51,349 nt of DNA, from NCBI GenBank assembly GCA_050173015.1, contig JBFXLE010000001.1, forward strand, positions 343,087 through 394,435, written 5' to 3'. Below the pieces are notes generated by a model that had not been told where the DNA came from, searched no databases, and was given only the letters and a program-made list of their open reading frames with translations. Made by a program: the position numbers and the translations under genes. Shown here piece by piece: positions 2-19,464 of the stretch (position 1 is its first letter; the number at the start of each line of letters is the position of its first letter). The DNA is from Calditrichaceae bacterium (GTDB lineage: Bacteria > Calditrichota > Calditrichia > Calditrichales > JBFXGD01).

Positions 2-3000
2 TATATAGCGGATCAGTTGGCGGACTGGACGACGACGGGCAGTCTTGACGCCGCCGGCAGTCTTGGAGCATCGAGTTTTACGTTTAATCCGACGACGGCG
101 CCCACTTCGGGAACGATCGAAGCGACGGTTGGCAGCATTAAGGACGCGACAGGCACGATCACAGTGAGCGTGGGAGCGGTCAATTATGTTAAAATAAGAG
201 ATGCCGCGAATAACAACGGAACCGAGATTGGCGCGGTCAATCTAACCGTCGGCCAAATCCTTTACCTATACGCCGCTGGATATGACAGTGAAGACAACTA
301 TAATTCTGACGTTGCTGTGGACTGGCATGTGACAGGTACATTACAAGGTCTTGGAGACAGCATCGGTACATCGTCGACAACACTGACACCACTCACGGCC
401 GGATCCGGTGAAATCAATATTACAAATGGCAGCGGTTGGACAAACGATGCCACAGGTACGATTACTGTCCAATCCGGAGCGTTAAAAAGCATCAAAATTA
501 GAACGGCCACAAATAACGGTGGATCAGAGCTTGGGAATTATTCCGGGCAGGCGGGAAGCACACTTGATCTTTTTGCGGCCGGATACGATAGTTACGAAAA
601 TTATCTTGGTGATCAAACAGTAGCATGGACTGTGGATGGAGATTCGATAGGATTTTTCAGCCAGACAGATTCATCTACCAGCAATACAATCAATTTTACA
701 ACGGTAAATGCGTCTCAGATTAAAATATCCCGGGGCGTCCTGAATGATTATAGCGGAATTGTAAAAGTAAGGGCCGGTGCGGCATTTGCCGCCGCGAGAA
801 TCTCACCGGAAACGGTAAGCGGTAAAGTAAATGATTTTATATCGGATTCTCTTGGGGTGGTGGTTACCGACGCGTACGGAAATTTGGTACCAACAGTCAA
901 TGTAGCCTGGTCCACTCCCTCAGATGGCTCGTTGAACCCGGTTAATGATGTCACGGACAGTCAGGGAATATCCAGAAGTAAATGGCATTTAATGACCACC
1001 GTCGGAACGGATACGGCGCGGGCGCAGGTAACGGGTATCGGAACTCCTGTGGAATTTTATGCCAGTACTCTTACTTCCACTGCCGATAGTCTAAAATATT
1101 ATTCAGGAGATGGTCAGACAGATACAGTAGCTCAACTGTTATCACAGCCATTAACTGTACAGGTTATAGACAGCTTGGGGAATCCGGTCAGTGGTGTATC
1201 GGTTACATTTTCCGTCACTTCTCATCCTGCTGCCGGCGGACATGATTTTGTATTGAATCCGGTCTCCGCATCTTCTGATGGCGGCGGCTTTGTAAGCACC
1301 AATTTCACTCTCGGTTCAAAGGTTGGTGATTATGTGATTGCCGCCTACAACAGTCAGCTGCTAAACAGTCCTGTCAGTTTTACAGTCAGCGCGACCGCGG
1401 ATGTAGCAGATCGGTTAGTAATTGTATCGGGTGATAATCAGACCGGGACTGCCGGTGTCGCCCTTTCACAACCCAATAAACTACGTGCCGTTGATGCCTA
1501 TGACAACCCTGTACAGGGTGTAACCATCAACTGGACACCCTCTGCTGATGGGTCAGTAAACCATACCGGTTTGACTACTAATGCAAGTGGTCTGGATTCT
1601 GTCACCTGGACATTGCAGTCTGCTGCTGGTAGTGATTTACTGACCGCGTCAAGCCCGGGATTAACTTCAGTGGATTTTAGCGCGACGGTAAATCCGGCAT
1701 CCGGTGATCATTTTGTCATTCTTTCCAGTCAGGATTCCATCAAAGTCGGAACATCGCGTTTGCTGGAAGTGGCACTGGAAGACGCTTTTGATAATCGTGT
1801 TTCTTCAGGACAATCCGTCACTTTTAACCGGCTGCATGGGAACGGGTTATTCAGTAATGGTTCCGGTTTAATCACAAAAACAACAGATAATACCGGTGTC
1901 GCCTCCGCGTTATATACTGTCAGTGATTCCTTACTCTATATTCGAGACAGTGTCGAAGTTGTTTTTGGTGGTGTTAGGGACACAATTGTGCTGCCGTTAA
2001 AAGCGGGAAACGTGAGTTATTATACGTTTACACCTTCAGGAAATAATTCAATAGCTGCCGGCGGAAGCGTCAATTATACATTGACCGCTCACGATCAGTT
2101 TGGAAATCCGGTTGTAAATAGTGATCAGATTACACTATCGGCAATAGGCAGCGCGACCGCTGTTTTTTCCGGTGGTCCTTTCCAGTTCAGTAACAGCAGC
2201 GCGCTTAATTTTAGTGTAAGCGATAATACAAAGGGCAGTTTTACGGTAAGAGCGGCCAAATCCACAAATACGGAAATTAAGGGAGAGAGCGGACTTATTA
2301 CGGTGAACGCTGCCGTGGCGGAACACTTTGTCATCATTTCCAGTCAGGATGCTATTACCACAGATACTGAACGTCTTCTGCAGGTTGGGCTGGAAGATGT
2401 CCATAATAACCGGTTACCCGCTTCACAGACGGTTACGTTCCGGCGTTTTAACGGTAACGGATTGTTCAGCAACGGATTGGATAATATCAATGACGATACC
2501 GATGCGAGCGGAATAGCGGAGGCCCGCTACACCGCAAGCGATTCGCTTTATTATTTAAGAGACAGTGTTGAAGTTTCATTCGGTGGAATTCTTGATACCA
2601 TCGTTCTTCCCTTAAAAGCGGGAAAAGTCAGCTATTATACCTTTACACCTTCCGGAGATAATACCATAACGGCCGGTGGAAGCGTCAATTTCACACTGAC
2701 CGCGCGCGATCAGAACGGTAATGAAGTCGTGAACAGTGATCAGGTGACATTAAGCGCGGTGGGCAGCGCGACCGCGGTATTTGCCGGCGGACCGTTTGTT
2801 TTTAGTTCGAGCAGCACGCTTAACTTTAGCGTAAGTGAGACAAAAAAAGGCAGCTTTACTGTTCGCGCCGTTAAATCAACAAATACGGAAGTCAAGGGGG
2901 AAAGCGGTCTTATTACCGTCAATCCGGCAGCCTTAAACTATGTCTTAGTGCGAACAGAAGCCAATAACGGTGGTATTGAATTTGCGGATTCTACTTTCAC

Positions 3001-6000
3001 CGCAGATAATCTTGTCAATTTTTTCTCCGCGGGCTATGATCAATATGATAACTACCGCTCAGATGTCGTGGTAAACTGGACAAGTCTCGGAGGCCTTGAT
3101 CCTGTGACTTCCACAGGGTCAAAATTTGCGTTCAACCCGATATTGGCAGGCGTGACAGGTCAGATCGTGGCCACACATTCAACATATCCCGCGGTTGACG
3201 CGGATACATCGGGGATCATTACGATTAATCCGGGGAACCTGGCTTCGTTGCGCGTGCAGATAAACGACCTGAATGGCGGACCGGAATTAAGTGATTCAAC
3301 CATCACGGCGGATGATTTTATAGATGTCTATGCCGTCGGTTATGACGCGGACGGTAATTACAGGGGACGTGTTTCATCAAGCTGGACACGCAGCGGTGTA
3401 ATATCTTCAATTTCACCGGCAAATCCTACTGACAGTCTGCATATCGAGGGGACACTAAAAGGTACAGGAAGTGTACGAGCTACAGCGGTATCCAACACAT
3501 CGGTTTATGATAATACCGGTTTGATAACAGTCAACCCGGGCGCGGTTTCGTATGTTAAGATCCGCAGTGAATCAAACGGAGGCGGAATTGAGATTGCTGA
3601 TTCAACGCTTGCAGTTGGTCAGGTTCTCAATCTGTATTCGGCAGGGTATGATAGTGATAATAATTTTAGTCAAAATGCTCCCGTCAACTGGAACGTAACC
3701 GGTGGACTGACCGGGCTTGGAAATAGCACAAATGTTTATGTTACTACTCTCACGCCCACATCACCAGGCTCAGGAGCAGTGCAGGTTACAAACATCAACG
3801 GTTGGACAAATGATGCGACCGGTACAATCACGGTTCAGACGGGTGAGTTGGCATCTATCAGAATACAGACCGCTACCGGCGCCGGTGGAGCTGAGTTAGG
3901 CGCGTACAATGCCACAGCGGGTGGGTCCTTGGATTTATACGCTGAGGGATATGATATTAAGGGAAATTATATCTCACCGATCAATGTTTTTTGGACAGTC
4001 GATGGTGATTCGATTGGCGCGTTTACCCAAACGGATTCGGCTACGACGAACACGATTAACTTCACTCTGGCAAATTCAGCTCAGCTGAAAATCATCCGTG
4101 GTTCTTTGAATGATTATTCGGGAATTATCAAAGTCAGACCCGGAGCGGCATTTGCGATCACAAAAATTACGCCTGATACGGTCAGCGGAAAGGTCAATGA
4201 TTTCATCAGCGATTCACTGGGAATCAGAGTTGTTGACGCCTATAATAATTTGGTGCCTGGCGCCAGTGTCACCTGGAGCATCAATAGTGACGGAACATTG
4301 AATCCTTTGTCGGATGTCACTGACAGTCAGGGCGTTTCAAGAAGTAAATGGCGTCTGAAAACAACGGTCGGACTGGACTCGGCTTCTGCCGCTGTTGCAG
4401 GAATTACCTCACCGGTCACTTTTTACGCGAATGCTTTAAGTTCATCGGCAAACACTCTGGTGTATGTTTCCGGTGACTCACTGACGGGTACGGTTCAGGA
4501 TACTCTTGCGCAACCATTTGTGGTGAGGGTCGAAGATAATTTCGGGAATCCCGTTTCAGGGGTTTCGGTTACATTTTCCGTAACAGATCACCCGGTAAAC
4601 GCGGAGCATAATTTTAATTTTACTCAGGAATCCGGCTTATCAGACGCTTCAGGTAATGTACAAACATTCTTCCAGTTGGGAAGTAAGGCTGGGCAGTACC
4701 AGATTTCAGCATTTAACAGTCAGTTAAATAACAGCCCGATTAAGTTTACCTCGTTTGCTGTGCCGGATACAGCTGATCAAATACTCATTGTCTCCGGAAA
4801 TAATCAAACCGGTACGGTTGGACAGCCGCTTGTTCAATATCTTAAAGTACGATCTGTTGACGCTTATAACAACCCGGTCCAGGGTGTGACTATTGACTGG
4901 ACGCCGTCATTAGACGGATCGGTTGACCACTCAGGCTTAGTCACTAACTCAAGTGGTCTGGATTCAGTGATTTGGACAATGAGAACGGCTTCGGGAAAAG
5001 ATACTCTAACGGTGAGCAGCCCGGGAAAAACACCTGTTGTATTTTATGCCCAGGCAAACGCGGACGTGGCGAATACAATCATCGCCTATGCAGGAAATAA
5101 TAGAACAAGTATCGCGGGCGGCAATCAGCAAATTATCGCACAGGTTCAGGACCAATACGGAAACTTCGTAAAGGATCAGACCGTCCAATTTATTCCGACA
5201 CAATATATCTCAAACCTGACGGATAAATCGGATGAAAATGGTTTGGCGCGTTCACTCTATACAACGCCCAAAAAAGCTGATTCCTCTTTCGCAAAAGCAT
5301 ATATAACCGGATTGGTAGATACAGCGGCCTTTAAAATATACGGCATCCGTTATGTGTCAAATTCTCTGGAACCAAAAGTTGTAATGCCCGGGGATACAAC
5401 CACATTTTATGTTAAAGTTTCCAATCCCGGGGTAGACATCGTTCCATTGGATACATCCCGAAGCGAGTTTATTATAAACGATACTGATTATAGCATTACC
5501 ACCAAGCTTGACTCACCTCTGACGTTGCCGGCCCGCAGCCTGGAAAATATGTTAAAGTTTAAGCCGACGGTTATCAACGGAGGATTCCTAAGCGGAAAAT
5601 ATACGCCAGAAATTCATCTTGTGGGCAGAGATGCATACAGCGGGATGAACGGCACACTGACTACGGACGCGGTCGAACTCTCGATCGAACCACTGAGAAT
5701 TGTAGCTATAACGATTCTTGATCCGGCTTCCAAAATTGTTCGTAAGGGTGATTCGATAAATAAAATTCAGATGAGAATCAGAAATACCAGCATGTATACG
5801 ATTCGTAGTCTCAGCGCAGATCTGACTTTCACGCCTGATTATGGATTTAGTGAAGTTCAAATTTCAGGCCCGGACTCTCTCTTGAGCGATTCGGATGGTA
5901 TCTATGAGTTTTCGCTTGACATTCCATTTGGCGCCAATCCCGATACAATAACAGTGGATGGTATTGTGATGGGCCGGTATTCCGGAACCGGAGATTTGAT

Positions 6001-9000
6001 CTCTGATACAGAATCTTCGATTACGGATCAGTTTGTTGTCGCGAATGCGGCGGTCCTGACTTTTGTAGATTATTCTCCGAAAACAATATCAGCCGGGCAG
6101 AATGTTCAGTTTACGGCTCAGGTCAAAAATGACGGCGTTTATGATGTTCTATTGAATAAATTATCCACAAATATAGATTTTGGAAGCCAAAAATTTAACT
6201 TGTCTGCTAATCAGGCGCTGGCCGGGGCCGGAACAACCACCACGCTGAATTTCACCGCGGCGGATCTGACCATTCCGGGAGGCGCAAAGTATGAAGGGCT
6301 TCTTGTATTAAACGGTACTGAAAACGGGGCGATCTTTAATGATTCTTTAATCACCGGTGACAGTCTGAACGTTCAAAATCCGGCGGTGATACAAATTAAT
6401 TCTATTATCGCATCAGGAACCGATATCAGTCAGGGTGCCGATACTCTGGTTACCATTGACGTAACCAACACCGGGCAGGCTTCGTTAAGAGTTGATTCTC
6501 TTATCGTCATACCATATGGCGTACCGGTTTCAATCGCGCCGGTTCTTCCTAACACTCTTACCGGTGGTGAAACCAGGCAGTTTGATGCCAGAGTGACTGT
6601 GCCCACAGGACCCGATACAGGATTAGTCACGATAGACGCGAGGGGAAAGGGGATCGATGTCAATAGCGGAAGCGTGATAACAGCTGCATCAGCAGCCGCG
6701 ACAGATTCTTGGAATGTTTTCACGCCTCCGGTCATATCGATTACACAAATTGCTCATGTGAATCCTGAAGACAGTCTGGTCAGTCAGGGGCAAGCCAAAA
6801 TACCGGTTTCGGTCACGATAAAGAATAATGGCGGGACTTCGGTTTCCATAAATAATTTGAATCTTGTCGCCAAAATCGGTCTTTATTCTCATAAATGGCC
6901 GGCATTGCCGATCCCGTTGGCCGGACATTCTGAAATCACGATCACAGATTCAGTTTTAGTGCAGACAAATTCCGCAACCGGACACGATACCTTGTACGCG
7001 AGCGTAGGCTATCAAAACAATTATTCCGGAAAGTCATCAAACCTTACGAGCGCTACATTTATGGCTTGGGAAGTAACAGGAAAACCGCTGGTCGAAATTA
7101 TAAGCGTATCCGCTGTAAAGGATTTCGTCTCACAAGGCCAAACCGCTGTCAATGTGAATGTCAGAGTGAAAAATGTCGGAACATCTCCTGCCAGAGTTGA
7201 GACGCTGGCGCTTAATTATAAAAACGGTAATGGAAATTATACATTTAATCCAGTCAGTCCTGTTCTGCCCAGAACAATTGACAGCGGATTATCCCAGGTG
7301 TTTACGGTTCCGGTTAATGTTAATTTTGACGCGCAAACCGGACCGGATACCATGTATGCCAGTATTAATTTAACGGAATTGTTGTCACAGCAGAATTTTG
7401 ACATCACTGACACAACGGTCACGGATACCTGGCAGGTACAACAGCGGCCTCAGGTGGTGATCGACAGCGTGACAGTTACTCCGCAGCTGGTCTCAACCAG
7501 TCAGACCAATCTCCGGGCAACGGTTTATATGCGGAATGCGGCCGGTACATATCGCGCGGACGCGCAGGTAGATTCTGTCCGGTTAAAATTAATGACAAGC
7601 GGGGCGGTTGAAAGGAATGATTTATTTACGATTACACGAAATTCATCCCCTTCAATTCCATTAATATTAAAACCCGGATCATCAACACGGTTTGATTATA
7701 ACCTGGCAACCCTGGGCAGCACTTTATCAGATAATTATAGTGTTGACGGTTACACAGGGACCCGAGATATAAATGACGGAATGCTGACGATTCAGGACGG
7801 AGCGGTGGTACCCGGTAGCTTAACCGTTGAGCAGGCTGCTCTTCTGGCCGTTAATTCAGTCGCAATCAACCCCGATACACTAAGTCAGGGGCAGAGCCAT
7901 GGCCGGTTGTCGATAAGTGTCACTAATTCCGGAGAAGCTGACGCTGTTATTAACTCCAATCAATTGTCAGTGTCACCGCCGATAAATCTTGGACCGGTAC
8001 TTATCAGCCACTCGACACCGTTTAACCTGGCCGGCGGAATAACGGATACTCTCATTTACTCACTCGTCATTCCTTCGGGATATACAGGTACGGTCGGCGT
8101 AAATAATACGATTTTCGGAAAAGATTCAAACTCCGGAGCGGATTTAAGCGCGAGTTCCGGCAGTCCGGGTCAGTTTTTCGTCGAGACACCGGCAGCTCTT
8201 TCAGTATTTGAGACTACTCCAAACGCTTCTCCGGGAGACACGACAATTCAATTCCGGGTAAAAGTCGTAAATACCGGTGAAGCGACAGTCGAGCTTGACT
8301 CCAATCTTACCACCATCGAGATACAGGGCACGTCGTATCTGATTGGATTGGCGGGAACAAGTCCACAGACCATCAGAGCATTTCCTGATACCACAGAGCT
8401 TGTGTTCCGAAGTACTTTGATCACCGGTATTCAATCTCAGGAATATCCGTTACGACTGCATGTGAGAGGAACATCAAACAAAGCGGCATATCAGAGTGAT
8501 CATGATGCCGGTATTTTTGCCTACGGCGCAGGTCTGGTTTCAATAACGTCAGTCGGCATTGTCGGTGATAACCGGGTTATTCCGGGACAAACCGGGATTC
8601 AGGTGATAATGACGGTATCAAACAGCGGAATTCCGTTGCAGATTGATCCGGCGGGGACTACTCTAATCCTAAAATCTGCCGCCGACGGCAGTATTCGCAA
8701 TGTCAATAATTTGAATCGTACTGATACACTGACCGTGCTAAAAACGAGCAGTAATAACCGGCTTCAATTTGTCTTTGATTTACCGGATCCTTTCCCGTTG
8801 GGACAAACGAATATTTTTGGTCAAATCAGTCTGGATAACGGCAATCTGGTTAAAGAATCCGCCACTTTTGAAGACATGATTGTATTATCAAAAGCGAATA
8901 TAAGCTATGTGTCGGGAAGTATGAATCCTGATACACTGATAAGAAGACAAACAGATTCCTTTGCGTTTACATTCTATAACGCGGGTTCGGCTGATTTGGC

Positions 9001-12000: not shown

Positions 12001-12829
12001 TTTCCTGCGTGGAATGACAGACAGGGCCATTCTCGCATTTTCAATTTCCAATCAGGGATATGAGGATAATTTAAATGTGAATGCGGTCGAGATTGGATTA
12101 CATTCAACTTTCGGCGTACCTTCGCCGGATAACCTCCTCAACCAGCTGGCGTTAGCTAATATGATGAAGAGTCTGAAAGTTGTGAACTATGAGCAGTACA
12201 AAAACGGATTGTCTAAAAATACCGCGGTTCAGCGGCCAAAGGTTTTTGCTGAATATCAGATCGATGAATCTTCGGATAATCCCGTTTGGATGGATTTCGC
12301 ATTAGTGGATACGCTTGAAGCCGGTGCGGTGGATACGATAATTGTTCTGGCGGAATTACAGACCGAAGCGGAAAACAGGAGTTTTAGGACAGTGTTGAAA
12401 CATGTAAATGCCTATGATGTGGATCCATCTGTTCCGCTGGCGATTAAGGATGCTCAGGGTGTGGATATTAATGAAAGCCAAAGTTATACGTCGGAAGCTT
12501 TTACGGTGATTTCCTCAAATCCACAAGAAGCATTCAGAAATTATCCGAATCCCTTCGGCCGGAATGAAGAGTTTACAACGATCGTATTTCAACTTGATCA
12601 TGATTCAGATGTGGAAATCAGGATTTTCACTCTGCTTGGTGAACTGGTTTGGACGAAAATACTGCCAAATCAGATTGCCGGTCTGCACTATGACGACGTC
12701 CGGTGGAATGGCAAAAATGACCGTGGTTATGTTGTTTTGAATGGGGTTTATCTCTGCGCTATTGATATTAAGCCTAAAGGTGGCGGATCGAGGCAGAAAT
12801 TTATTACAAAAATTGCTTATATAAAATAA
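2..12829 (+). CDS. Giant multi-Ig-domain surface protein/adhesin (>4270 aa, 5'-truncated) with invasin/intimin Big_1-like repeats, other beta-sandwich repeats and a C-terminal T9SS type-A/FlgD-Ig-like sorting domain
   Basis: The frame is open from position 2 (YIADQLADW...), so the true start lies upstream of the window. The protein is S/T/G/V/D/N-rich and beta-strand-like. Big_1-like motifs recur (GDGQTDTV..L..PL.VQV.DS.GNPV.GV.V.F). The C-terminus NYPNPF...VEIRIFTLLGELV...WNGKNDRG..V.NGVY...KIAYIK is the typical FCB secretion CTD/FlgD-Ig pattern. Confidence 0.9.
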   Translation, partial: YIADQLADWTTTGSLDAAGSLGASSFTFNPTTAPTSGTIEATVGSIKDATGTITVSVGAVNYVKIRDAANNNGTEIGAVNLTVGQILYLYAAGYDSEDNYNSDVAVDWHVTGTLQGLGDSIGTSSTTLTPLTAGSGEINITNGSGWTNDATGTITVQSGALKSIKIRTATNNGGSELGNYSGQAGSTLDLFAAGYDSYENYLGDQTVAWTVDGDSIGFFSQTDSSTSNTINFTTVNASQIKISRGVLNDYSGIVKVRAGAAFAAARISPETVSGKVNDFISDSLGVVVTDAYGNLVPTVNVAWSTPSDGSLNPVNDVTDSQGISRSKWHLMTTVGTDTARAQVTGIGTPVEFYASTLTSTADSLKYYSGDGQTDTVAQLLSQPLTVQVIDSLGNPVSGVSVTFSVTSHPAAGGHDFVLNPVSASSDGGGFVSTNFTLGSKVGDYVIAAYNSQLLNSPVSFTVSATADVADRLVIVSGDNQTGTAGVALSQPNKLRAVDAYDNPVQGVTINWTPSADGSVNHTGLTTNASGLDSVTWTLQSAAGSDLLTASSPGLTSVDFSATVNPASGDHFVILSSQDSIKVGTSRLLEVALEDAFDNRVSSGQSVTFNRLHGNGLFSNGSGLITKTTDNTGVASALYTVSDSLLYIRDSVEVVFGGVRDTIVLPLKAGNVSYYTFTPSGNNSIAAGGSVNYTLTAHDQFGNPVVNSDQITLSAIGSATAVFSGGPFQFSNSSALNFSVSDNTKGSFTVRAAKSTNTEIKGESGLITVNAAVAEHFVIISSQDAITTDTERLLQVGLEDVHNNRLPASQTVTFRRFNGNGLFSNGLDNINDDTDASGIAEARYTASDSLYYLRDSVEVSFGGILDTIVLPLKAGKVSYYTFTPSGDNTITAGGSVNFTLTARDQNGNEVVNSDQVTLSAVGSATAVFAGGPFVFSSSSTLNFSVSETKKGSFTVRAVKSTNTEVKGESGLITVNPAALNYVLVRTEANNGGIEFADSTFTADNLVNFFSAGYDQYDNYRSDVVVNWTSLGGLDPVTSTGSKFAFNPILAGVTGQIVATHSTYPAVDADTSGIITINPGNLASLRVQINDLNGGPELSDSTITADDFIDVYAVGYDADGNYRGRVSSSWTRSGVISSISPANPTDSLHIEGTLKGTGSVRATAVSNTSVYDNTGLITVNPGAVSYVKIRSESNGGGIEIADSTLAVGQVLNLYSAGYDSDNNFSQNAPVNWNVTGGLTGLGNSTNVYVTTLTPTSPGSGAVQVTNINGWTNDATGTITVQTGELASIRIQTATGAGGAELGAYNATAGGSLDLYAEGYDIKGNYISPINVFWTVDGDSIGAFTQTDSATTNTINFTLANSAQLKIIRGSLNDYSGIIKVRPGAAFAITKITPDTVSGKVNDFISDSLGIRVVDAYNNLVPGASVTWSINSDGTLNPLSDVTDSQGVSRSKWRLKTTVGLDSASAAVAGITSPVTFYANALSSSANTLVYVSGDSLTGTVQDTLAQPFVVRVEDNFGNPVSGVSVTFSVTDHPVNAEHNFNFTQESGLSDASGNVQTFFQLGSKAGQYQISAFNSQLNNSPIKFTSFAVPDTADQILIVSGNNQTGTVGQPLVQYLKVRSVDAYNNPVQGVTIDWTPSLDGSVDHSGLVTNSSGLDSVIWTMRTASGKDTLTVSSPGKTPVVFYAQANADVANTIIAYAGNNRTSIAGGNQQIIAQVQDQYGNFVKDQTVQFIPTQYISNLTDKSDENGLARSLYTTPKKADSSFAKAYITGLVDTAAFKIYGIRYVSNSLEPKVVMPGDTTTFYVKVSNPGVDIVPLDTSRSEFIINDTDYSITTKLDSPLTLPARSLENMLKFKPTVINGGFLSGKYTPEIHLVGRDAYSGMNGTLTTDAVELSIEPLRIVAITILDPASKIVRKGDSINKIQMRIRNTSMYTIRSLSADLTFTPDYGFSEVQISGPDSLLSDSDGIYEFSLDIPFGANPDTITVDGIVMGRYSGTGDLISDTESSITDQFVVANAAVLTFVDYSPKTISAGQNVQFTAQVKNDGVYDVLLNKLSTNIDFGSQKFNLSANQALAGAGTTTTLNFTAADLTIPGGAKYEGLLVLNGTENGAIFNDSLITGDSLNVQNPAVIQINSIIASGTDISQGADTLVTIDVTNTGQASLRVDSLIVIPYGVPVSIAPVLPNTLTGGETRQFDARVTVPTGPDTGLVTIDARGKGIDVNSGSVITAASAAATDSWNVFTPPVISITQIAHVNPEDSLVSQGQAKIPVSVTIKNNGGTSVSINNLNLVAKIGLYSHKWPALPIPLAGHSEITITDSVLVQTNSATGHDTLYASVGYQNNYSGKSSNLTSATFMAWEVTGKPLVEIISVSAVKDFVSQGQTAVNVNVRVKNVGTSPARVETLALNYKNGNGNYTFNPVSPVLPRTIDSGLSQVFTVPVNVNFDAQTGPDTMYASINLTELLSQQNFDITDTTVTDTWQVQQRPQVVIDSVTVTPQLVSTSQTNLRATVYMRNAAGTYRADAQVDSVRLKLMTSGAVERNDLFTITRNSSPSIPLILKPGSSTRFDYNLATLGSTLSDNYSVDGYTGTRDINDGMLTIQDGAVVPGSLTVEQAALLAVNSVAINPDTLSQGQSHGRLSISVTNSGEADAVINSNQLSVSPPINLGPVLISHSTPFNLAGGITDTLIYSLVIPSGYTGTVGVNNTIFGKDSNSGADLSASSGSPGQFFVETPAALSVFETTPNASPGDTTIQFRVKVVNTGEATVELDSNLTTIEIQGTSYLIGLAGTSPQTIRAFPDTTELVFRSTLITGIQSQEYPLRLHVRGTSNKAAYQSDHDAGIFAYGAGLVSITSVGIVGDNRVIPGQTGIQVIMTVSNSGIPLQIDPAGTTLILKSAADGSIRNVNNLNRTDTLTVLKTSSNNRLQFVFDLPDPFPLGQTNIFGQISLDNGNLVKESATFEDMIVLSKANISYVSGSMNPDTLIRRQTDSFAFTFYNAGSADLALNPDSSYMEILSSPISRKYLAGKFTLGGLDSTEILFNSLTVPVTMDTVIYNVKWRLKGILLNGSDYEKEEIIFGVLKIIPEARLIFTQINILPETVRQGQNDISINYTLANIGKSSAAISKIDYIFNAGATNVSTQWLPSTINLFPDTLIAGQSRTYSINYNLSQSATTGIVKPKPIVSYRDLRTSTFTDTSKTIVFGDSVLVIRPALVGIDSLKIIKDALAPNAPNVNQNEPFNLLLRLVNNGADTIRTAYVSLSRDDNFLQQLVMTDIAPFNYKTLIYSSPGLAIDGSTIYKVKIDSAIELTGNLVTIQQPVDNLETVVVQTASSLALNAAIVSPVGAVDGIISVGTKFKLRADVTRVSGISPYGNGRMTLSLPDTVHYKFDSDVAEKIFTQSQAYAEWNLEALAVSSGGIFDSLRIQMNEIPIDLNTGSAVTTVKTMDTVLVRTDEAGLVTADISIASPEGARDSVISTGQEFVLHTEIAFNQSVRDTGRVAQIVLPSGFSVKTSSIIDLPTTPTAAVDWEIVAPASPTQGTVNISVRINGYDNNSGVPVQTTSNLLPVRVVLKSSLVLGLKIVEPAGATDDTVSVGQTLKLEGLVTLQPGTAAISGTGKASILLSPEFTLMDPDTQRTFTVGIPFYWWVRVDGASTKSAASMAELKSILNGMNNKDSSPDLYDGGVERLDGPVNNVDLRKVVKEALMVTAAAKDAYQITVKVDSIPLDVNTQLPATINETQTKTIYTEDSATLSIVSTEAPDTVSSGQTFTYGVTGAISSNLANPVAYLLMPEKFGGAVIARALDINNQATWDIAVPANYTGTGKDTIEVFLTGIDRNSGEATDPTPLVANPLTVQLRPKLSLKHTLLSPVSSQAGLLSFGQEVIVELWAEYAENTSGLDYASVQGSGAISLDSALVIQNGFTLVEGETFKKTFTQLGQKLVWRIKAPLSERTVSINFSFAGLPIDKNSGLSAEIDIMTGLVSLPVRVRQKNITVLMLNELIVDKSFLRGMTDRAILAFSISNQGYEDNLNVNAVEIGLHSTFGVPSPDNLLNQLALANMMKSLKVVNYEQYKNGLSKNTAVQRPKVFAEYQIDESSDNPVWMDFALVDTLEAGAVDTIIVLAELQTEAENRSFRTVLKHVNAYDVDPSVPLAIKDAQGVDINESQSYTSEAFTVISSNPQEAFRNYPNPFGRNEEFTTIVFQLDHDSDVEIRIFTLLGELVWTKILPNQIAGLHYDDVRWNGKNDRGYVVLNGVYLCAIDIKPKGGGSRQKFITKIAYIK
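170..5060 (+). repeat. Intragenic long duplication: about 170-1700 repeated at about 3536-5060 (offset 3366 nt), plus about 101-aa 'x(A/S)xGYD..xNY' domains
   Basis: GYD motifs occur at nt 269, 572, 3023, 3329, 3635 and 3938 (spacing 303-306 nt). Segments such as GWTNDATGTITVQ, SGKVNDFISDSLG and DVTDSQG.SRSKW occur in both copies. Confidence 0.9.
1706..2925 (+). repeat. Tandem intragenic duplication, 2 x 615 nt (205 aa)
   Basis: HFV(I)(L/I)SSQD begins at 1709 and 2324. Both copies share LPLKAG.VSYYTFTPSG.N.I.AGGSVN.TLTA.DQ.GN.VVNSDQ and KGSFTVRA.KSTNTE.KGESGLITVN, with visible nucleotide similarity. Confidence 0.92.
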
Positions 12830-12843
12830 GTGAGATAGCGAGT

Positions 12844-14769
12844 ATGCAAATATTAAAAAAAATATTTAATAGAACAGAAGGCTTATTCGTCACTGTTTTC
12901 GCAATTTTGATATTTTCTTCCGGAGCGGTTGCCCAGGATGGACAGGGTGGGACGGAGAGCAACCTGAGTTTTGGTTATGGCGCCCGCTCGATGGGCATGG
13001 GTCATGCCTTTACAGCCATTGCGGATGATCCGACCGCTGTTTTCTGGAATCCTGCCGGCCTGGAATATATTTATCAACAAAGTGTTACTCTCTTTCACAT
13101 GTCTTTGTTTGAAGGCACGAATTATGATTTTCTCGGCTATGCATTCCCTACTCTTGGGTTGGGGACTTTTGGACTGGGTATTGGACGTATTGGAGTCGGT
13201 GAAATTTTACAGACGGACAGGGATAATGTTTATTTAGGAGAATTTTCTCAGGAAGATTATGAGTTTTATTTCTCATATGCCAAAAAATTGCCATGGGATT
13301 TATCATCAGGGGCAACGATTAGGGTTGTAAGGCGCTCGTGGAGTAACCTGTATGATGAAGGAAGTTTAAATGATATGGGTGTCGGTCTCGATTTAGGTAT
13401 CATGTATCGGCCGGGCTGGTTTACAAACAGATGGCTTCAGGATTGGTCTTTCGGGTTAAATATTCATAACTTATTTCCTCCGCAAGTTAAAGAAGGCATC
13501 GGTGTTGACGATTATCCGATGACCGTCCGCTTGGGTCTTAACAAAATAATCAGATTTGCCGGTGGAGGAGCATTAAACCTGGCCTTTGATTTTGATTATT
13601 CTGAAAAAAGAGATTTAAAACTGAATATGGGGACGGAGTATAGTTTTAGAGACATGGGAATGCTCAGACTGGGTATGGATACCAACGGGTTGACATACGG
13701 CGCCGGAGTTGAATATCGTTTCTTCCAGATAGATTATGGATTTGGCTCTACCGAGTACAGTGATTATTTCTCAGCGGTTCACCGAATTTCGCTGACGTTC
13801 AATTTCGGTTTGACCAGGGACGATCTTTTTACTATTGCCGAGGCCAAACGACAGGAAGAGGAAGATCGTATCATCGCCGAAATACGCGAGGCGGACAGGC
13901 AGCAGTCAATTGTCACACACCTGAAACTGGCGGATGAGTATTTTAACACTGAGAAATATCTGGATGCGATTGTTGAATATCAGCAGGTTATCGGACAGGA
14001 TCCGTTCCATTTCAGGGCAAAAGTGATGCTGGATTCTTCGAATACCATGCTACAGAAAGGTTTTGAATCACAACAGGCTCTCGCGGTCAAAGACGCCCTG
14101 GATAAAGACCGGGCTGAGAATGACAGACGCTATGTGAATGAGCATTTTGAGAAAGGTCGTTTATTCCTTGATAAAAAACAGTTTACAGAAGCATTAATCG
14201 AGTTTAATATATCTCTCGAACGCGATCCGAAGAATGAAACATTGTTGAATGCTATTTCTACTACAAAAAGAAGGCTTTCGGAGGAGATTAACAGCCTTGT
14301 TCGTAAGAGCAGGGAAGAATTTAAAAACCAGAATTATTCCGAAGCGTTGCGACTTCTTGCCGACGCAAGATTGCTTGGTGGGCAGAATGCCGAGTTACAG
14401 ACGGAAATCGAAGCTTTGGCTCAAAGAATAAAATTACAGGAAAATATTCAACAAGGCTTGCTTTTGTACGATATAGGAGAGTATAGTAAAGCATTACAGC
14501 TATTTGAAGGCGTTTTGGATATGGATCCTGAAAATCCGTTGGTTAAACAGTATGTTGAACGGTCGAAAGTCGAAACCATAGGCAAAGAAGATGAAATGGA
14601 TCCGGATGCGGAACGACTTTATCACGAAGGTGTAGAAAAATTTCTCATCGGTAAATATCAGGATGCGATCGGTCTATGGGAAGAAATTTTAATCAAACAT
14701 CCTTATAATAAGAAGGTCCTGGCGGCAATAAAAGGCGCAAAAGAACGTCTTAAGAGCACAGGCAAATAA
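12844..14769 (+). CDS. PorV/PorQ (UPF0164)-family outer-membrane beta-barrel fused to a C-terminal coiled-coil/TPR region
   Basis: Signal peptide ending AVA-QD. Signature GARSMGMGHAFTAIADDPTAVFWNPAGL. The barrel ends ...VHRISLTFNFG (about nt 13809) and is followed by TPR-like repeats (YLDAIVEYQQVIGQDP, FTEALIEFNISLERDPKN, YSKALQLFEGVLDMDPEN, YQDAIGLWEEILIKHP). Confidence 0.85.
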   Translation: MQILKKIFNRTEGLFVTVFAILIFSSGAVAQDGQGGTESNLSFGYGARSMGMGHAFTAIADDPTAVFWNPAGLEYIYQQSVTLFHMSLFEGTNYDFLGYAFPTLGLGTFGLGIGRIGVGEILQTDRDNVYLGEFSQEDYEFYFSYAKKLPWDLSSGATIRVVRRSWSNLYDEGSLNDMGVGLDLGIMYRPGWFTNRWLQDWSFGLNIHNLFPPQVKEGIGVDDYPMTVRLGLNKIIRFAGGGALNLAFDFDYSEKRDLKLNMGTEYSFRDMGMLRLGMDTNGLTYGAGVEYRFFQIDYGFGSTEYSDYFSAVHRISLTFNFGLTRDDLFTIAEAKRQEEEDRIIAEIREADRQQSIVTHLKLADEYFNTEKYLDAIVEYQQVIGQDPFHFRAKVMLDSSNTMLQKGFESQQALAVKDALDKDRAENDRRYVNEHFEKGRLFLDKKQFTEALIEFNISLERDPKNETLLNAISTTKRRLSEEINSLVRKSREEFKNQNYSEALRLLADARLLGGQNAELQTEIEALAQRIKLQENIQQGLLLYDIGEYSKALQLFEGVLDMDPENPLVKQYVERSKVETIGKEDEMDPDAERLYHEGVEKFLIGKYQDAIGLWEEILIKHPYNKKVLAAIKGAKERLKSTGK

Positions 14770-14790
14770 TAATCATGGATATGATCTTAC

Positions 14791-17700
14791 ATGTTTAAAA
14801 ATGTAAAAAAAGAAGAAATCACAATTCCGGCTCAGATGAGCTATCTGGTTCAGATACGGGATTTTGTTGAACATATCGGCAAAAAGTACCGATATGATGA
14901 AAAACTGATCAACTCTTTTAAGCTCGTTATTGATGAAGCATGTACAAATGTTATTCGCCATGGTTACAGAGATATCAAAAATGGTGAAATCACTGTTAAG
15001 GCCATTGCCCGCAGATTAAGCCTGACAATCGTCATTATCGATCAGGGACACACATACGATCCGAGACAAGCCAATACGCCCGATCTCGCGAAATATGTGG
15101 ATATCGGTAAAAAAGGCGGTTTGGGAATCATGATGATGCGAAAGCTCATGGATGATTTGCAGTACGCAGTTACCGAACGGGGCAATGAATTCAGGCTTAC
15201 CAAAAAACAGGAACCGCCTGAAGAATCTAAATTTATCAGCAAATGGCGGGCTTTTTCCTTAAGGGCCAAATACTCCCTGGTCGCATCACTTATACTCACT
15301 ATCATCACTACTTTTATTTTTTCCATATTTATTTTTGATGTCAGAAATGATGTTGACGAAGAAGTTTTTGCCCAGGCGGCATCCAATTGTCGTTCCCTCG
15401 CGGATAACGCGATTGACGATCTTCTGAATGAAAATACGCTGGGTTTATTTGAAAAGGCGCGTTCTGTAAAAAACAACAATGAAAAAATAATCCTGGAAGC
15501 ATTTGTTGTACTGCCTGATAACAGAATTGAGGCAAGAAGCACGCCGCTTAAAATGGATGGCCCCGGAAATTATTCAATTCCGGAGAATGCCGTTCAGCTG
15601 GATAGTTTACCTAATGTGAGAGTAATGAGCTATAGTTTAGGCGATAGTAGTCATATTTTTGACCTGTCAACAAATATTCGTCAGTCTTTGTCAGGTGAAG
15701 GCCCGACACTTGGAGAAGTTCATATTTGGGTTGATGAGCGGTCATTAATCGACCTTGCTTCCGCTAAGCGCCTTCGTTTAATCCTTTATTTATTTGTAAT
15801 AATAGCTATTGGTTATGTGGGTGCATTCTTTTTGATCCACCGCATCCTCACACCATTCCAGAATCTTGCTGAATGGGTGCGGCAGGTTGTACATGATAAA
15901 GTTGATCAGGATGAAATTGATATTGATACATCGGATGAACTTGGTGAAATTGCTCAGGCCATTAATGACATGAATTTTAAATTCCGTGAAGCCCAGGTAA
16001 ATCTGATGGAGCAGCAAAAATTGCAGAAGGAATTGCAGGTTGCTCAGGAAATACAGCAGATGCTTCTCCCGAGCGATTTCCCAAAAGTTGAAGGATTTGA
16101 GATTTCATCTTACTATGAAGCGGCAAAGGAAGTGGGCGGTGATTTATTCGATTTTGTTGAAGTCGATGAAGATACTATCGGGATAATTGTCGCTGACGTG
16201 TCCGGAAAAGGGGTTCCCGGATCACTTATCATGACCATGATACGTACCGCTCTGCGTCTGGAGTCACGTGGAAATAAAAATCCGGCGGATGTACTGGCTA
16301 AAGTAAACCGGTTTGTAACGGATGATATGAAACGAGGCATGTTTGTTACCATGTTTTATATCATTCTTGACTCGAGAAATAGAATCATTCATTATGCGAG
16401 CGCCGGACATAATCCGATGATTTTATACCGGGGATCAGCTAAAAAGACATACTACCTTAATCCATCCGGATTTCCCGTAGGAATTCAACTGCCCGATATT
16501 ACCCTGTTCGACAGGAAGATCGAGACAGATTCCATACGGTTAAGAGAAGATGATATTCTTGTGCTCTACACCGATGGAATTACAGAAGCAATGAATTCCA
16601 AAAGGGAATTGTACAGGGAAGAACGATTCCTGGACGCCATTCGTAATAACGGTCATCTTGATGTCGCGGAATTTGTAAGAAGTGTCAAAGATGATCTGAA
16701 AACATTTACCGGAGGCGCCCCTCAAAATGACGATATCACTTTCGTTTCGGTGAAAGAAAAATTAATGCCGGGCGAGGTGATTTACAAAATTCATAAGGAA
16801 TTACTTGATTTAATATCAAATGGAACCCGGGTGAAGGATGCATGTGATCAGATGCGGGTCTCTCAATATCATTATTACAAATATAAGAGCATTGTTGAAG
16901 AAGGCGGGTTAGACGCCCTGAGAGAATATCTCGAAGGGCAGGATTATGTTGAGAAAAAACATTTATCGGTGGAAGTTAAAGCCAAGGTCTTTGATATCAT
17001 TCGCAAACATCCGGAATATGGCGCGAATCGTATTTCTAATGATCTGAATACAGAGCTTTATGGTTTTGAAAAAGTTGATCCGCAGAGACTTTACAATGAA
17101 TTAGTTAAGTTAAAATTAAACACAAAGGAACAGCGGGTTAAATTTGTTAAGAAAGGTGATAAGAGGGCGCTTAAACAACCTGGCACGCCATTATTAACGC
17201 TTGATGGTAAAGTAATTATGAATTTTCAGTCCTCTGAAAGTGAGATCGCTAAGCGTAAAGGCGAACCTACCCAGAAACTGACAAGTCTGCCGATCGAATC
17301 GAAAAAAGCCGTTGTAAGGGAATTTAATACCGATAAAGCCTCAAAAACTGAAAAACAGGGCTCAGAAAGCGTATCTCCCCTTTTCCAGCATCAGACGGAA
17401 AAGCCTGCTGAGCCAGTTAAAGAACCTGATAAAGAGAAATTATCTGAAAAGGTTCCTCCGGCTGAGCACAAAACACCTGAACCAAAACAAGAACCTGAGG
17501 CGGTTCCAGGTCAGGAAAATGATAACAAAGAAACCATCACGGTCAATCAGGATGAGATATTATTTAAGCCAAAAGAACAAAGTGAAAAAAACAGAGAAGA
17601 CCGCGCTGATCGAGCTAAAGAAAAAAGTGATCAGATAGAAAGATTAGCCAGAAAACAGACAAGAGAAGATTTGTTAGCCACGGTGACTATAGAGACCGAT

Positions 17701-18192
17701 TCAGCGGAATTGGCGCACTTTTTTAATTCCATCGCCGACGATCTTGCAGGTATCTCATCTCTTATTAAGGGGATTGATGCCAGTGCCGATGGCGCCCAGG
17801 AGATGAAAAAAATTAATTTAATATTAAAAATTATGTTAAAGAATCCGATATTAAGAAAGCTGCCGGATGTCCAAAGGATTTATAAGCAGGCTCAGGAATC
17901 GGTCGCTCTTCTAGAGTCTAAGTTTAAGGATTTGGGTAAAGAATTTGCTTATTCCAAATTAAAAGACTTATTGAAATATGTCGAAAAAGATTATATATTG
18001 AGTGCTCAATCATCATTAACTGAAGTTAATAATAAAATCGGTATCATTCGCCGTCACATAACTGCAAAATTATCTGCAGCAAAAACTAAACAATCAAGTG
18101 AAATGGATCTTGCCCGGAAAAAGTTGGCTCAGAAAAAAATAGTCAGCAATGCTTCATTGCTGGAATCGTTAGTAAAGAATGACAAGAATTAA
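14791..18192 (+). CDS. Membrane-bound partner-switching regulator: RsbW-type Ser kinase (HATPase_c_2), TM, periplasmic domain, TM, HAMP, SpoIIE/PP2C phosphatase, HTH region, charged linker and helical C-terminal domain
   Basis: N-terminal kinase motifs LVIDEACTNVIRHGY, DQG..YDP and GGLGIMMMRKLMDD. Two hydrophobic helices. HAMP motif DELGEIAQAINDM. PP2C motifs AAKEVGGDLFD, ADVSGKGVP, SAGHNP, LYTDGITEA and QNDDIT. Confidence 0.9.
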   Translation: MFKNVKKEEITIPAQMSYLVQIRDFVEHIGKKYRYDEKLINSFKLVIDEACTNVIRHGYRDIKNGEITVKAIARRLSLTIVIIDQGHTYDPRQANTPDLAKYVDIGKKGGLGIMMMRKLMDDLQYAVTERGNEFRLTKKQEPPEESKFISKWRAFSLRAKYSLVASLILTIITTFIFSIFIFDVRNDVDEEVFAQAASNCRSLADNAIDDLLNENTLGLFEKARSVKNNNEKIILEAFVVLPDNRIEARSTPLKMDGPGNYSIPENAVQLDSLPNVRVMSYSLGDSSHIFDLSTNIRQSLSGEGPTLGEVHIWVDERSLIDLASAKRLRLILYLFVIIAIGYVGAFFLIHRILTPFQNLAEWVRQVVHDKVDQDEIDIDTSDELGEIAQAINDMNFKFREAQVNLMEQQKLQKELQVAQEIQQMLLPSDFPKVEGFEISSYYEAAKEVGGDLFDFVEVDEDTIGIIVADVSGKGVPGSLIMTMIRTALRLESRGNKNPADVLAKVNRFVTDDMKRGMFVTMFYIILDSRNRIIHYASAGHNPMILYRGSAKKTYYLNPSGFPVGIQLPDITLFDRKIETDSIRLREDDILVLYTDGITEAMNSKRELYREERFLDAIRNNGHLDVAEFVRSVKDDLKTFTGGAPQNDDITFVSVKEKLMPGEVIYKIHKELLDLISNGTRVKDACDQMRVSQYHYYKYKSIVEEGGLDALREYLEGQDYVEKKHLSVEVKAKVFDIIRKHPEYGANRISNDLNTELYGFEKVDPQRLYNELVKLKLNTKEQRVKFVKKGDKRALKQPGTPLLTLDGKVIMNFQSSESEIAKRKGEPTQKLTSLPIESKKAVVREFNTDKASKTEKQGSESVSPLFQHQTEKPAEPVKEPDKEKLSEKVPPAEHKTPEPKQEPEAVPGQENDNKETITVNQDEILFKPKEQSEKNREDRADRAKEKSDQIERLARKQTREDLLATVTIETDSAELAHFFNSIADDLAGISSLIKGIDASADGAQEMKKINLILKIMLKNPILRKLPDVQRIYKQAQESVALLESKFKDLGKEFAYSKLKDLLKYVEKDYILSAQSSLTEVNNKIGIIRRHITAKLSAAKTKQSSEMDLARKKLAQKKIVSNASLLESLVKNDKN

Positions 18193-18253
18193 ATCCGCAA
18201 CATTAAGCGGAATGAGAATTGCATAAATAAATTCCCGTAGAAGGAGGATTTGA

Positions 18254-18946
18254 ATGGAAGGAATTCAAGTCTCTACTGAGATTGCAGGTAGTCGGAATCA
18301 TATCTCCATTATAAAAGTTGGTGGATACATCGACACTACAACGTCATCTGAACTGGAGCGAGCACTGGATTCTCTTTTGAGACAAGGGCGGTTCTTCATT
18401 ATTGTTGATCTTGGTAATGTCGATTACATCAGTAGCGCGGGATGGGGGATATTTATCAGTGAGATCAAATCAATCAGAGAAAATGGCGGTGATTTAAAAT
18501 TAGTTCGCATGGTTCCTGATGTTTACGAAATATTTGAACTTCTGGAATTTCATCACATCCTTGATGTATATGATACTGTGGATGAAGCAATAAACAAATT
18601 TGAAATGCTGGAAGCCGCCGGAAAGTCGGTTGCAAAAGAAATCACACTTCCCAAAGCGCCTCAGCCGGCTCCAGCGCCACCAGCTCAAAGAACTGATGAC
18701 AGACGCGCGGAAAAGGTAGGCGTCGCCGAAGAACTTAATGAGATGAATCCGGCAGATCTGAGTATTTCGAGAAAGATACAACTCATTGTTAAGGAACAAC
18801 CTGGTTTTGGGGCGTATAAAATAAAAAAAGCCCTCAATACAGCAAAATTCGGTTATACCCGTATTGGCTGGTTTGAAGTACGCGCTGAGCTTGCGAAGAT
18901 GAGATTAAATAGCAAGTCGCGCAGATACGATTTTGCGACTTCCTGA
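18254..18946 (+). CDS. STAS anti-sigma-factor antagonist (RsbV/SpoIIAA-like) with Pro/Ala linker and C-terminal HTH-like domain
   Basis: Strong RBS AAGGAGG. STAS motifs GYIDTTT and IIVDLGNVDYISSAGWG, with Ser at the phospho-acceptor position. The C-terminal ~60 aa resemble part of the upstream protein. Confidence 0.9.
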   Translation: MEGIQVSTEIAGSRNHISIIKVGGYIDTTTSSELERALDSLLRQGRFFIIVDLGNVDYISSAGWGIFISEIKSIRENGGDLKLVRMVPDVYEIFELLEFHHILDVYDTVDEAINKFEMLEAAGKSVAKEITLPKAPQPAPAPPAQRTDDRRAEKVGVAEELNEMNPADLSISRKIQLIVKEQPGFGAYKIKKALNTAKFGYTRIGWFEVRAELAKMRLNSKSRRYDFATS

Positions 18947-18963
18947 GGAGAACGTGAATAAGT

Positions 18964-19464
18964 ATGATAACTATTATGGATGTTGGTCTGGTCATGACCA
19001 TCCTAATTTCAATTTTATCTAATTTTTATGGTTTGCCGGGAAATTCACTGCTTGCCGGGAGCAGCCTTGTTTATGGTATTTTTACCGGATTTGAATCTTT
19101 TTCGATAACATTTGTTCTGACCCTGTTTGCCATTGTTGTTCTTATTGAATTTCTGGAATTTCTGATTATCTCTCTGACCGCTAAAAAATACGGTGCGTCA
19201 AAGTGGGGAATAAGCGGCGGGATTGTTGGAGGGATACTGGGCGCGATAAGCGGTGCTTTTATAACACCGGTTCTTGGGGCGATTATAGGATCCATTGCAG
19301 GAGTATTTTTGGGCGCGTTTGCACTTGAATTTATCAGAACGACTAATTTAAGAGGCAGTTTGTATTCGGGTCTTGGAGCATTTTTAGGCAAACTCGGCGG
19401 GCTGTCAATAAAAGTTATAGGAACCGTTACCATGGCAATCATGGTCGTCTCAAAAATAATTTAA
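18964..19464 (+). CDS. DUF456-family membrane protein
   Basis: Hydrophobic and Gly-rich, with LPG, AKKYGASKWG..GGIVG.ILG and G..AGVFLGAFALE motifs typical of DUF456/YqgC. Confidence 0.85.
   Translation: MITIMDVGLVMTILISILSNFYGLPGNSLLAGSSLVYGIFTGFESFSITFVLTLFAIVVLIEFLEFLIISLTAKKYGASKWGISGGIVGGILGAISGAFITPVLGAIIGSIAGVFLGAFALEFIRTTNLRGSLYSGLGAFLGKLGGLSIKVIGTVTMAIMVVSKII

Follow-up and report, generated by a model that had tools for sequence, protein, structure and literature searches.

Can the state of a secreted surface protein be reported across the bacterial cell envelope to a partner switch in the cytoplasm? The question is raised by a stretch of 51,349 nucleotides (the window; contig JBFXLE010000001.1, positions 343,087 to 394,435) from a Calditrichaceae bacterium. 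Here, four genes follow one another on the + strand: those for a giant surface protein that ends in a C-terminal domain (CTD) resembling those on cargo for type IX secretion (T9SS) (g1), a PorV/PorQ-like outer membrane (OM) barrel with a tetratricopeptide repeat (TPR) arm (g2), a membrane-bound fusion of an RsbW-type kinase and a PP2C phosphatase (g3), and a STAS protein (g4). Genes g1 to g4 form a four-gene module that is conserved in Calditrichota and in at least one phylum besides. We lean, by a modest degree, toward the view that they form an envelope module with a signaling mechanism running from the barrel to the STAS protein. The module is apparently undescribed.

Conservation of gene order in and beyond Calditrichota

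At the level of the order, all 29 loci have g2 directly before g3, and in 28 of them g4 comes next, the 29th locus ending inside g3. An orthologue of g3 is present in 86/86 genomes of the phylum (one class). The wider sample covered ten genomes from six families (f2, f3, f5, f6, f7, and f8) in stretches of 32 kb, and in these the order is g1-g2-g3-g4-(g5)-g6-g7, g5 to g7 being genes downstream of the module; g1 and g2 are present in 9/10, with g1 found as pieces in 9 of the 10 loci. A sequence search with g2 in a protein index gave relatives of at least 53% identity, none of them outside the phylum.

The exhaustive search with g3 found many relatives with the full architecture, at 28 to 45% identity, among the best 150 of 98,609 matches. 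Loci of distant g3 homologues were collected with an alignment of 16 relatives as the query, which returned 80 loci. Wherever a full-architecture locus has upstream sequence (L066-L070 and L086), the barrel-TPR gene lies directly upstream (6/6). A split version is found in L074, L077, and L143, where the gene for the barrel-TPR protein is followed by those for a transmembrane (TM) PP2C protein, a STAS-RsbW fusion, a STAS protein, and a GAF histidine kinase; the split form of the switch is also listed for L148. In L069, L070, L074, L077, and L143, the five loci outside Calditrichia that have upstream sequence, a large CTD-ended open reading frame (ORF) lies just upstream of the barrel gene (1,440 to at least 2,662 amino acids [aa] where intact). 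We claim for these ORFs that, by profile match, they end in a T9SS-type CTD, and nothing more. Their assignment as g1 orthologues by CTD was rejected, as CTDs from the genome of g1 itself reach 65.5 bits, against 55 to 74 bits for the upstream giants. The remaining 71 of the 80 loci have no barrel beside the PP2C gene, being PP2C-only matches or ordinary pp2c-stas-rsbw-pp2c clusters, and were left out of the linkage counts; one of them (L073) has a weak barrel-like ORF, ∼4 kb downstream only. Two other arrangements were seen in this set: the g3 homologue at L069:9881-14212 (1,444 aa) carries three fused STAS domains, and a GAF-GGDEF cyclase gene stands after the STAS gene at L070:14283-16019.

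Searching from the barrel side gave the same picture. In the phylum of genome G086, a barrel-TPR match at an E value of ≤1e-30 was found in 42 of 61 sampled genomes. The second-phylum count covers 30 loci, each from a different genome, with 21 further matches outside the count. The gene next downstream of the barrel encodes PP2C in 17/30 and RsbW in 13/30, and in 6 of those 13 the flank is long enough to show a PP2C domain in the same ORF; upstream of the barrel is a CTD-ended ORF in 29/30. Four of four further long barrel paralogues in G086-G089 show the order CTD-ORF, barrel-TPR, RsbW/PP2C, and a STAS gene follows in the three loci that extend far enough. In the second phylum, the core exists as two diverged paralogous versions, with the kinase fused or split, and both have the same gene order. 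Linkage of the Rsb pair with the barrel-TPR and giant genes, which had been set beforehand as a point on which the idea of a joint system could fail, is thus kept within the order, across the phylum, and in a second phylum.

Components, predicted contact, and limits of the module

The first-pass annotation had described five co-directional genes with no obvious terminator between them. The ORF listing has + strand ORFs at 2..12829 (g1, 4,275 aa, 5' open), 12844..14769 (g2, 641 aa), 14791..18192 (g3, 1,133 aa), 18254..18946 (g4, 230 aa), and 18964..19464 (g5, 166 aa). The gaps are exactly 14, 21, 61, and 17 nt, and a consensus scan placed zero terminator-like sites in all four of them. The only such + strand sites inside the block, 17696-17713 and 19048-19064, are intragenic; 18 sites were found in total, against 16.7 in shuffled sequence (standard deviation, 4.8). 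AGGAGG stands right before the ATG of g4, within the 61-nt gap between g3 and g4. Profile matches also bore out the domain calls made earlier, namely, a PorV-like barrel with TPRs, a membrane-bound RsbW/PP2C fusion, and a STAS protein. The features are as follows.

2..12829, + strand: g1, giant secreted surface protein, last 4,275 aa in the window; Big_1 immunoglobulin-like (Ig) repeats and internal duplications
12464..12817, + strand: T9SS-type CTD of g1; PorU model NF033707, positions 974-1093, E 5.9e-12
12844..13818, + strand: g2, N-terminal part, Sec signal peptide and PorV/PorQ-family OM barrel, residues 1-325; NF033709
13819..14769, + strand: g2, C-terminal part, coiled stretch and TPR arm, residues 326-641; TPR_2 and related families
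14791..15225, + strand: g3, RsbW-type serine kinase domain, predicted cytoplasmic; HATPase_c_2 E 2e-26, residues 12-138; RsbW models E 5e-19
15277..15840, + strand: g3, TM1, predicted periplasmic sensor domain (residues 185-327), and TM2; hydrophobic segments
15829..16755, + strand: g3, HAMP, linker, and PP2C/SpoIIE phosphatase; HAMP E 2.9e-7 (347-394), SpoIIE E 1.9e-50 (460-655)
16756..17235, + strand: g3, two-lobed helical region resembling a helix-turn-helix (HTH) (656-790) and conserved 25-residue motif (791-815); sub-threshold matches
17236..18192, + strand: g3, charged, poorly conserved C-terminal tail; column identity 0.24, length varying among orthologues
18254..18946, + strand: g4, STAS domain (1-121), disordered linker, and helical tail (166-230); STAS E 3.7e-20, residues 14-112
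18964..19464, + strand: g5, DUF456 membrane protein, variable passenger; DUF456 E 1e-26
19495..19527, + strand: terminator-like hairpin, 10 bp and then nine T; consensus match, centroid −13.9 kcal/mol, z −1.98 (76-nt stretch)

Pfam Big_1 matches g1 in six stretches (E 7.4e-32), and the protein contains large internal duplications. Its start is outside the window: on the genome contig the gene extends upstream through a 10-N scaffold gap, and an N-terminus with a signal peptide lies ∼660 aa above the gap. Together with the 4,275 aa in the window this gives g1 a length of at least ∼4,900 aa, the content of the gap being missing. The N-terminus has a borderline NIDO match (24.8 bits; cutoff, 25). 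The gap falls inside a tandem repeat of g1, directly before window position 1 (C1:340579-343086). Upstream of g1 are an AT-rich spacer and a small gene, slightly overlapping g1, for a secreted protein of 167 aa that matched no Pfam family; weak homologues of it (25 to 26% identity) stand at the same place in three related genomes.

As a candidate CTD of type A, the C-terminal end of g1 scored 22.4 bits (E 3.5e-4) against TIGR04183, or 23.2 with neighbors, at a cutoff of 23, and matched Pfam FlgD_ig at an E value of 6e-4, under the cutoff; other CTDs of the same genome resemble it at up to 37% identity. SprA (868 bits in total), PorU (833 bits; cutoff, 420), and 60 CTDs were matched in the genome, so that translocon, sortase, and CTD cargo are all represented and the host can be taken, on profile evidence, to have a T9SS. 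The GldM model TIGR03517 had no match in the genome, but it matched none of 14 control genomes either and is therefore uninformative. The genome has 17 further PorV/PorQ-like barrel matches, of which, by their coordinates, at least three lie directly behind a CTD-ended ORF; cargo with its own barrel is therefore a recurring pattern here. Such pairs, with a barrel lacking the TPR arm, are found at C6:147554-152202, C6:209553-210912, and C1:108068-109029, and one of the three CTD-ended ORFs encodes a PorU-like paralogue of 1,694 aa (243.9 bits, under the PorU cutoff).

The g2 protein exceeds the cutoff of the family model NF033709 (144.9 bits; cutoff, 90; residues 41-321) and falls below those of the orthologue models for PorV (56.8 versus 250), PorQ (82.6 versus 220), and PorV2 (77.2 versus 325), which makes it a PorV/PorQ family member with no named orthologue. 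Its N-terminus is hydrophobic, as expected of a Sec signal peptide, the g2-family profile matches the PorV chain 6h3i_F (E 2.3e-10), and Pfam UPF0164 matches weakly (21.7 bits; cutoff, 21.4). The TPR arm comprises ∼315 residues with a mean pairwise column identity of 0.51, and this part has weak matches to BamD, YbgF, and PilW models. Both ends of an even-stranded OM barrel face the periplasm, and the TPR tail should therefore be periplasmic. The genome contains one full-length match each for g2 and g3. Among its PorV/PorQ-like matches only g2 has a TPR arm, the others covering the barrel part alone, and only g3 has the fused architecture.

In g3, the kinase residues E49, N53, D84, G86, and G109-G112 are invariant in 38/38 rows of an alignment drawn from the phylum and beyond and presumably belong to the ATP-binding (N and G) boxes. 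Between hydrophobic helices at ∼163-183 and ∼328-350 lies a domain of about 140 aa, predicted to be periplasmic, that matched no Pfam family. The HAMP-PP2C part has a column identity of 0.78 to 0.81, and its aspartates D451, D469, D595, D647, and D648, which from family knowledge we take to be the metal-binding ones, are invariant in the same alignment. The motif at residues 791-815 (window 17161-17235) is nearly invariant, with a column identity of 0.71, and was modeled with low confidence. In g4, S60 and S61 are invariant in 38/38 rows, and alignment places S61 at the serine of the DS(S/T)GLG stretch in solved SpoIIAA, RsbV, and TM1442 (1th8_B, 6m36_B, and 1sbo_A). The Ser61 codon is at 18434-18436. 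We take the serine of that stretch to be the phospho-acceptor, which makes Ser61 the likely acceptor in g4. The g4 gene contains one A7 run, and its reading frame is intact. Judged from their sequences, g3 and g4 carry intact kinase, phosphatase, and acceptor residues.

Modeling of the TPR arm together with the sensor domain had been named in the first-pass annotation as a check on a physical chain, and it predicts an interaction. The g2 arm (326-641) and the g3 periplasmic domain (184-328), with a 38-row alignment per chain, gave a complex score of 0.70 (runs of 0.68, 0.72, and 0.70) against 0.01 for the best control, a mark that 58 of 80 solved complexes attained, as did 2 of 110 mismatched pairs; with the custom alignments used here, both figures apply only roughly. 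At least 93% of the contacts are shared between runs, and the predicted local distance difference test (pLDDT) value of the partner is at least 82. The predicted contact site is the last TPR of g2 (residues 584-632), residues 584-601 and 624-632 of which meet sensor residues 214-224 and 252-258. Among the predicted contacts are the best-conserved sensor residues, F220 (30/38 rows) and E221 (31/38), and the conserved G596, V597, and F600 on the TPR side. We know of no solved complex of a TPR arm and a sensor of this kind.

The module is smaller than the five-gene unit originally proposed. The first four genes stand as its conserved core, but the fifth, for a DUF456 protein, is dispensable and variable: in the 29 order-level loci it is present in 16 and absent from 8 (where the DUF4159 gene comes directly after the STAS gene), and 5 loci end early. 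It is also absent from all other-phylum loci examined and was rejected as a core part. The strongest terminator-like site of the region, the 10-bp hairpin followed by T9 at 19495-19518, lies just past g5, and transcription of the unit probably ends here; the ATG at 19528 is the likely start of the next gene. The co-directional run goes on with genes for DUF4159 (g6), DUF4175 (g7), and a patatin-POTRA-Omp85 protein (g8). They span window positions 19501-26308, and the patatin-Omp85 fusion is unusual in itself. The DUF4159 and DUF4175 genes are in place in 10/10 phylum-wide loci, and the patatin fusion is in place in 9/9 stretches that reach far enough. All three genes are absent from the other-phylum loci, and the conserved core is therefore exactly g1 to g4; with the hairpin also lying in between, g6 to g8 were rejected as module parts.

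A Pfam scan of 25 window ORFs, all of at least 100 aa, detected no sigma factor family, in agreement with the earlier reading of the window. Elsewhere in the window, a 606-aa ORF at 36188-38008, behind genes for a potassium channel and a cyclic nucleotide monophosphate (cNMP)-binding protein, matched no Pfam family at an E value of ≤1e-5, and a HicB-like antitoxin gene at 46641-47051 has no adjoining ORF of at least 100 aa as a HicA partner, shorter ORFs being outside the listing.

Proposed signaling across the envelope and competing explanations

How might such a module work? We propose that g1, a putative T9SS surface cargo, would be held by its dedicated barrel g2, by analogy with PorQ-PorZ and with cognate shuttles. 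The periplasmic TPR arm of g2 would reach inward until its last repeat touches the sensor domain of g3, a protein of the inner membrane that bears an RsbW-type kinase at one cytoplasmic end and a HAMP-PP2C phosphatase at the other. The state of the barrel or of the cargo would be relayed through HAMP to the balance of kinase and phosphatase, and this balance would set the phosphorylation level of g4 Ser61. In this lineage, g4 may then act through its HTH-like tail, by DNA binding or by pairing with the homologous lobe of g3, and would need no sigma factor. We infer the binding of g1 to g2, the direction of signaling, and the output. The more specific version, in which fiber contact or load, or barrel occupancy, leads to sigma-free serine phosphorylation of the STAS-HTH protein through a TPR arm that gates g3, is offered tentatively, as something that falls a little short of an even chance. 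A trans-envelope chain of this kind was the central idea of the first-pass annotation, and it now has computational support from the linkage and from the predicted TPR-sensor contact.

The output deserves a more restricted statement than it was given originally. HTH-like domains had been assigned to both cytoplasmic components, and homologous helical tails are indeed present on both: the g4 tail and residues 727-786 of g3, in the second lobe, share 30% identity (E 3e-10). The HTH matches themselves are sub-threshold only. In g3, the N-terminal part of the IS481 transposase model NF033577 matched at an E value of 5.8e-8 (32.6 bits; cutoff, 224), and Pfam HTH_23, HTH_28, HTH_29, and HTH_Tnp_1 matched at E values of 0.01 to 0.07, under their cutoffs. 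The structure model of the region has two helical lobes (pLDDT, 81.7), for which Foldseek returned 0 matches at an E value of ≤0.001; the best weak matches, not significant, were TnsB and MuA transposases and Pax paired domains. The g4 tail, 65 helical residues modeled with a pLDDT above 90, matched no Pfam family. The tails are missing from the split version in the other phylum, where a GAF histidine kinase follows the module, whereas L070 keeps them and has the GAF-GGDEF cyclase gene after STAS. Since the tails are often missing in the other phylum, direct DNA binding, put forward earlier as one possible output, is at most lineage specific. With the split version ending in a GAF histidine kinase and L070 in GAF-GGDEF, the output seems to be lineage dependent, as is usual for partner switches.

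Several observations weigh against the mechanism that we propose. In genome G082 (loci L050 and L051), g3 to g8 are retained, yet a g2 orthologue is missing from the entire genome and most of the kinase domain is gone from g3; unless the assembly is at fault, the switch is thus able to persist in the absence of a barrel. This is a 92%-complete, single-contig genome in which many matches contain stop codons, so that the absence could be a natural joint loss or an assembly fault. The genomes within the phylum are kin, and the locus counts therefore overstate independence. Of the folded parts of g3, the periplasmic domain shows the lowest conservation (mean column identity, 0.29, versus 0.51 for the TPR arm and 0.76 to 0.81 for the catalytic domains), and the 11 predicted interface residues are no better conserved than the rest of the sensor domain (0.42 versus 0.45). 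The complex model supports a touch between the last TPR of g2 and the periplasmic domain of g3 as a predicted interface, not as binding. Finally, the HTH identity of the g3 and g4 tails is below threshold in profiles and has zero significant fold matches.

Part of this evidence suits a module that works in the opposite direction. The switch might govern g1 rather than report on it, with the sensor reading a periplasmic or membrane cue, the STAS-HTH protein tuning transcription of the operon or the secretion or anchoring of g1, and the TPR arm docking the barrel to T9SS rings or peptidoglycan. The linkage fits such inside-out control equally well, and poor conservation is frequent in ligand-sensing domains. 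The genes that follow the module in the other phylum encode a GAF histidine kinase or a GAF-GGDEF cyclase, typical surface or biofilm regulators, and the weak BamD, YbgF, and PilW matches would fit a scaffold role for the arm. The complex model argues the other way in placing the last TPR on the sensor domain (0.70 versus 0.01), but contact leaves the direction of signaling unfixed, and inside-out control therefore overlaps with our preferred explanation. On balance, we regard it as unlikely, though well worth keeping in view.

An ordinary sigma partner switch would be the most conventional interpretation: the RsbW part of g3 would sequester a sigma factor encoded elsewhere, the unphosphorylated STAS protein would free it, and the tails would serve for docking. 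Models of anti-sigma factors and antagonists, as well as solved chains of RsbW, RsbV, and SpoIIAA, do match the RsbW and STAS domains, and further PP2C and RsbW genes are present in the genome. No sigma factor family, however, was found in the 25 window ORFs or among the named neighbors of the module in the other-phylum loci, the homologous helical tail is kept on both g3 and g4, and g3 joins a membrane-tethered kinase to the opposing phosphatase in one protein, as in SypE (PMC3610818). This arrangement appears improbable to us. That the barrel/cargo pair and the switch are unrelated, neighbors by descent that merely have never been separated, strikes us as very improbable indeed. Most counted loci come from two phyla with kin members, and g6 to g8 are also kept phylum-wide, so that gene order here is generally stable. 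But g6 to g8 are absent in the other phylum while the four-gene core stays, and two diverged paralogous versions, with the kinase fused or split, both keep the order of CTD protein, barrel-TPR, and phosphatase/kinase. Gaps of 14 to 61 nt and the predicted g2-g3 interface likewise speak for more than shared descent.

Significance and comparison with known systems

Partner switches are known mostly as cytoplasmic regulators of stress or biofilm responses, and PorY-PorX-SigP is reportedly the one regulatory cascade known for T9SS. To our knowledge, no shuttle or anchor barrel of a T9SS has been described as signaling to the cytoplasm. In literature that consisted mostly of open-access main texts, we found no description of a PorV-type barrel/cargo pair united with a partner switch, and in the same, mainly open-access, literature we found no paper treating Caldithrix together with T9SS. 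In the locus considered here, a gene order conserved in two phyla and a predicted periplasmic contact join a T9SS barrel and a partner switch. If the contact is real, it would give bacteria with giant surface fibers a concrete way to sense events at the surface. The proposed mechanism, if true, would be (i) the first case in which a shuttle or anchor protein of T9SS is known to have a signaling output, (ii) a surface-sensing device common to several little-studied phyla of the Fibrobacteres-Chlorobi-Bacteroidetes (FCB) group, and (iii) a function for the widespread, unstudied family of RsbW-TM-HAMP-PP2C receptors. Cultivated Calditrichota offer a test ground, with close g2 homologues labeled Caldithrix abyssi DSM 13497 and two Calditrichota isolates.

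In FecA-FecR-FecI and RcsF-IgaA, an OM protein extends into the periplasm and there makes contact with the periplasmic domain of a regulator in the inner membrane. These systems share their logic with g2-g3, but the protein families are unrelated and the output is an extracytoplasmic function (ECF) sigma factor or a phosphorelay rather than serine phosphorylation of a STAS protein. The architecture of g2, a barrel with TPRs, recurs in FadL/UPF0164-type barrels of spirochetes (Atlas clusters), presumably including examples with TPR tails in Treponema; we know of no link between these barrels and a partner switch. Closer to g3 are two groups of partner switches. Rv1364c of Mycobacterium tuberculosis (PDB 3ke6) fuses, in what we believe is this order, a phosphatase, an RsbW-type kinase, and an antagonist. 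Its PP2C part matches g3 at an E value of 3.8e-15, and L069 likewise fuses STAS domains to a g3 homologue. Unlike g3, Rv1364c is cytoplasmic, sensor linked, and tied to sigma F, without a membrane receptor or envelope partners. SiaABCD and HsbR/HsbA of Pseudomonas are said to combine a membrane HAMP-PP2C protein, or a fused phosphatase-kinase, with a small switch protein and control of a diguanylate cyclase. Similarly, L070 has a GAF-GGDEF gene after STAS, and PDB 6k4e matches g3 at an E value of 2.5e-8. Unlike the module described here, SiaABCD and HsbR/HsbA include no OM barrel or secreted giant protein.

On the side of the envelope, the nearest relatives are the shuttles and anchors of T9SS. 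In the T9SS attachment complex, PorV shuttles cargo and PorQ-PorZ provides anchoring (PMC5562754; PDB 6h3i), and cognate PorP/SprF shuttles for type B CTDs are described as being encoded next to their cargo (PMC12618676). Like PorV/PorQ and these shuttle pairs, the g2 barrel gene is directly beside the gene of a large surface protein with a candidate CTD. The published cognate shuttles are PorP/SprF-like and serve type B CTDs (PMC12618676), whereas g2 is PorV/PorQ-like. Unlike PorV and PorQ, g2 has a TPR arm, and genes for a kinase/phosphatase and a STAS protein always come next.

The most instructive parallel to g3 and g4 is SypE of Vibrio fischeri, which has an N-terminal RsbW-type kinase, a central input domain, and a C-terminal PP2C domain and acts on the STAS protein SypA (PMC3610818). 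No sigma partner is known for this action of SypE on SypA, and a conserved asparagine of the kinase is reported to be required there (PMC3610818). Like SypE/SypA, the g3/g4 pair has a kinase and a phosphatase around an input domain, a putative STAS substrate, and an invariant asparagine (N53). The differences lie in the input and in the surroundings. The input region of g3 is a predicted TM-periplasmic-TM-HAMP receptor, whereas that of SypE is a receiver domain, and g3 and g4 carry HTH-like tails. Unlike the genes of the syp polysaccharide locus, g3 and g4 lie behind the genes for a putative T9SS cargo and a PorV-like barrel.

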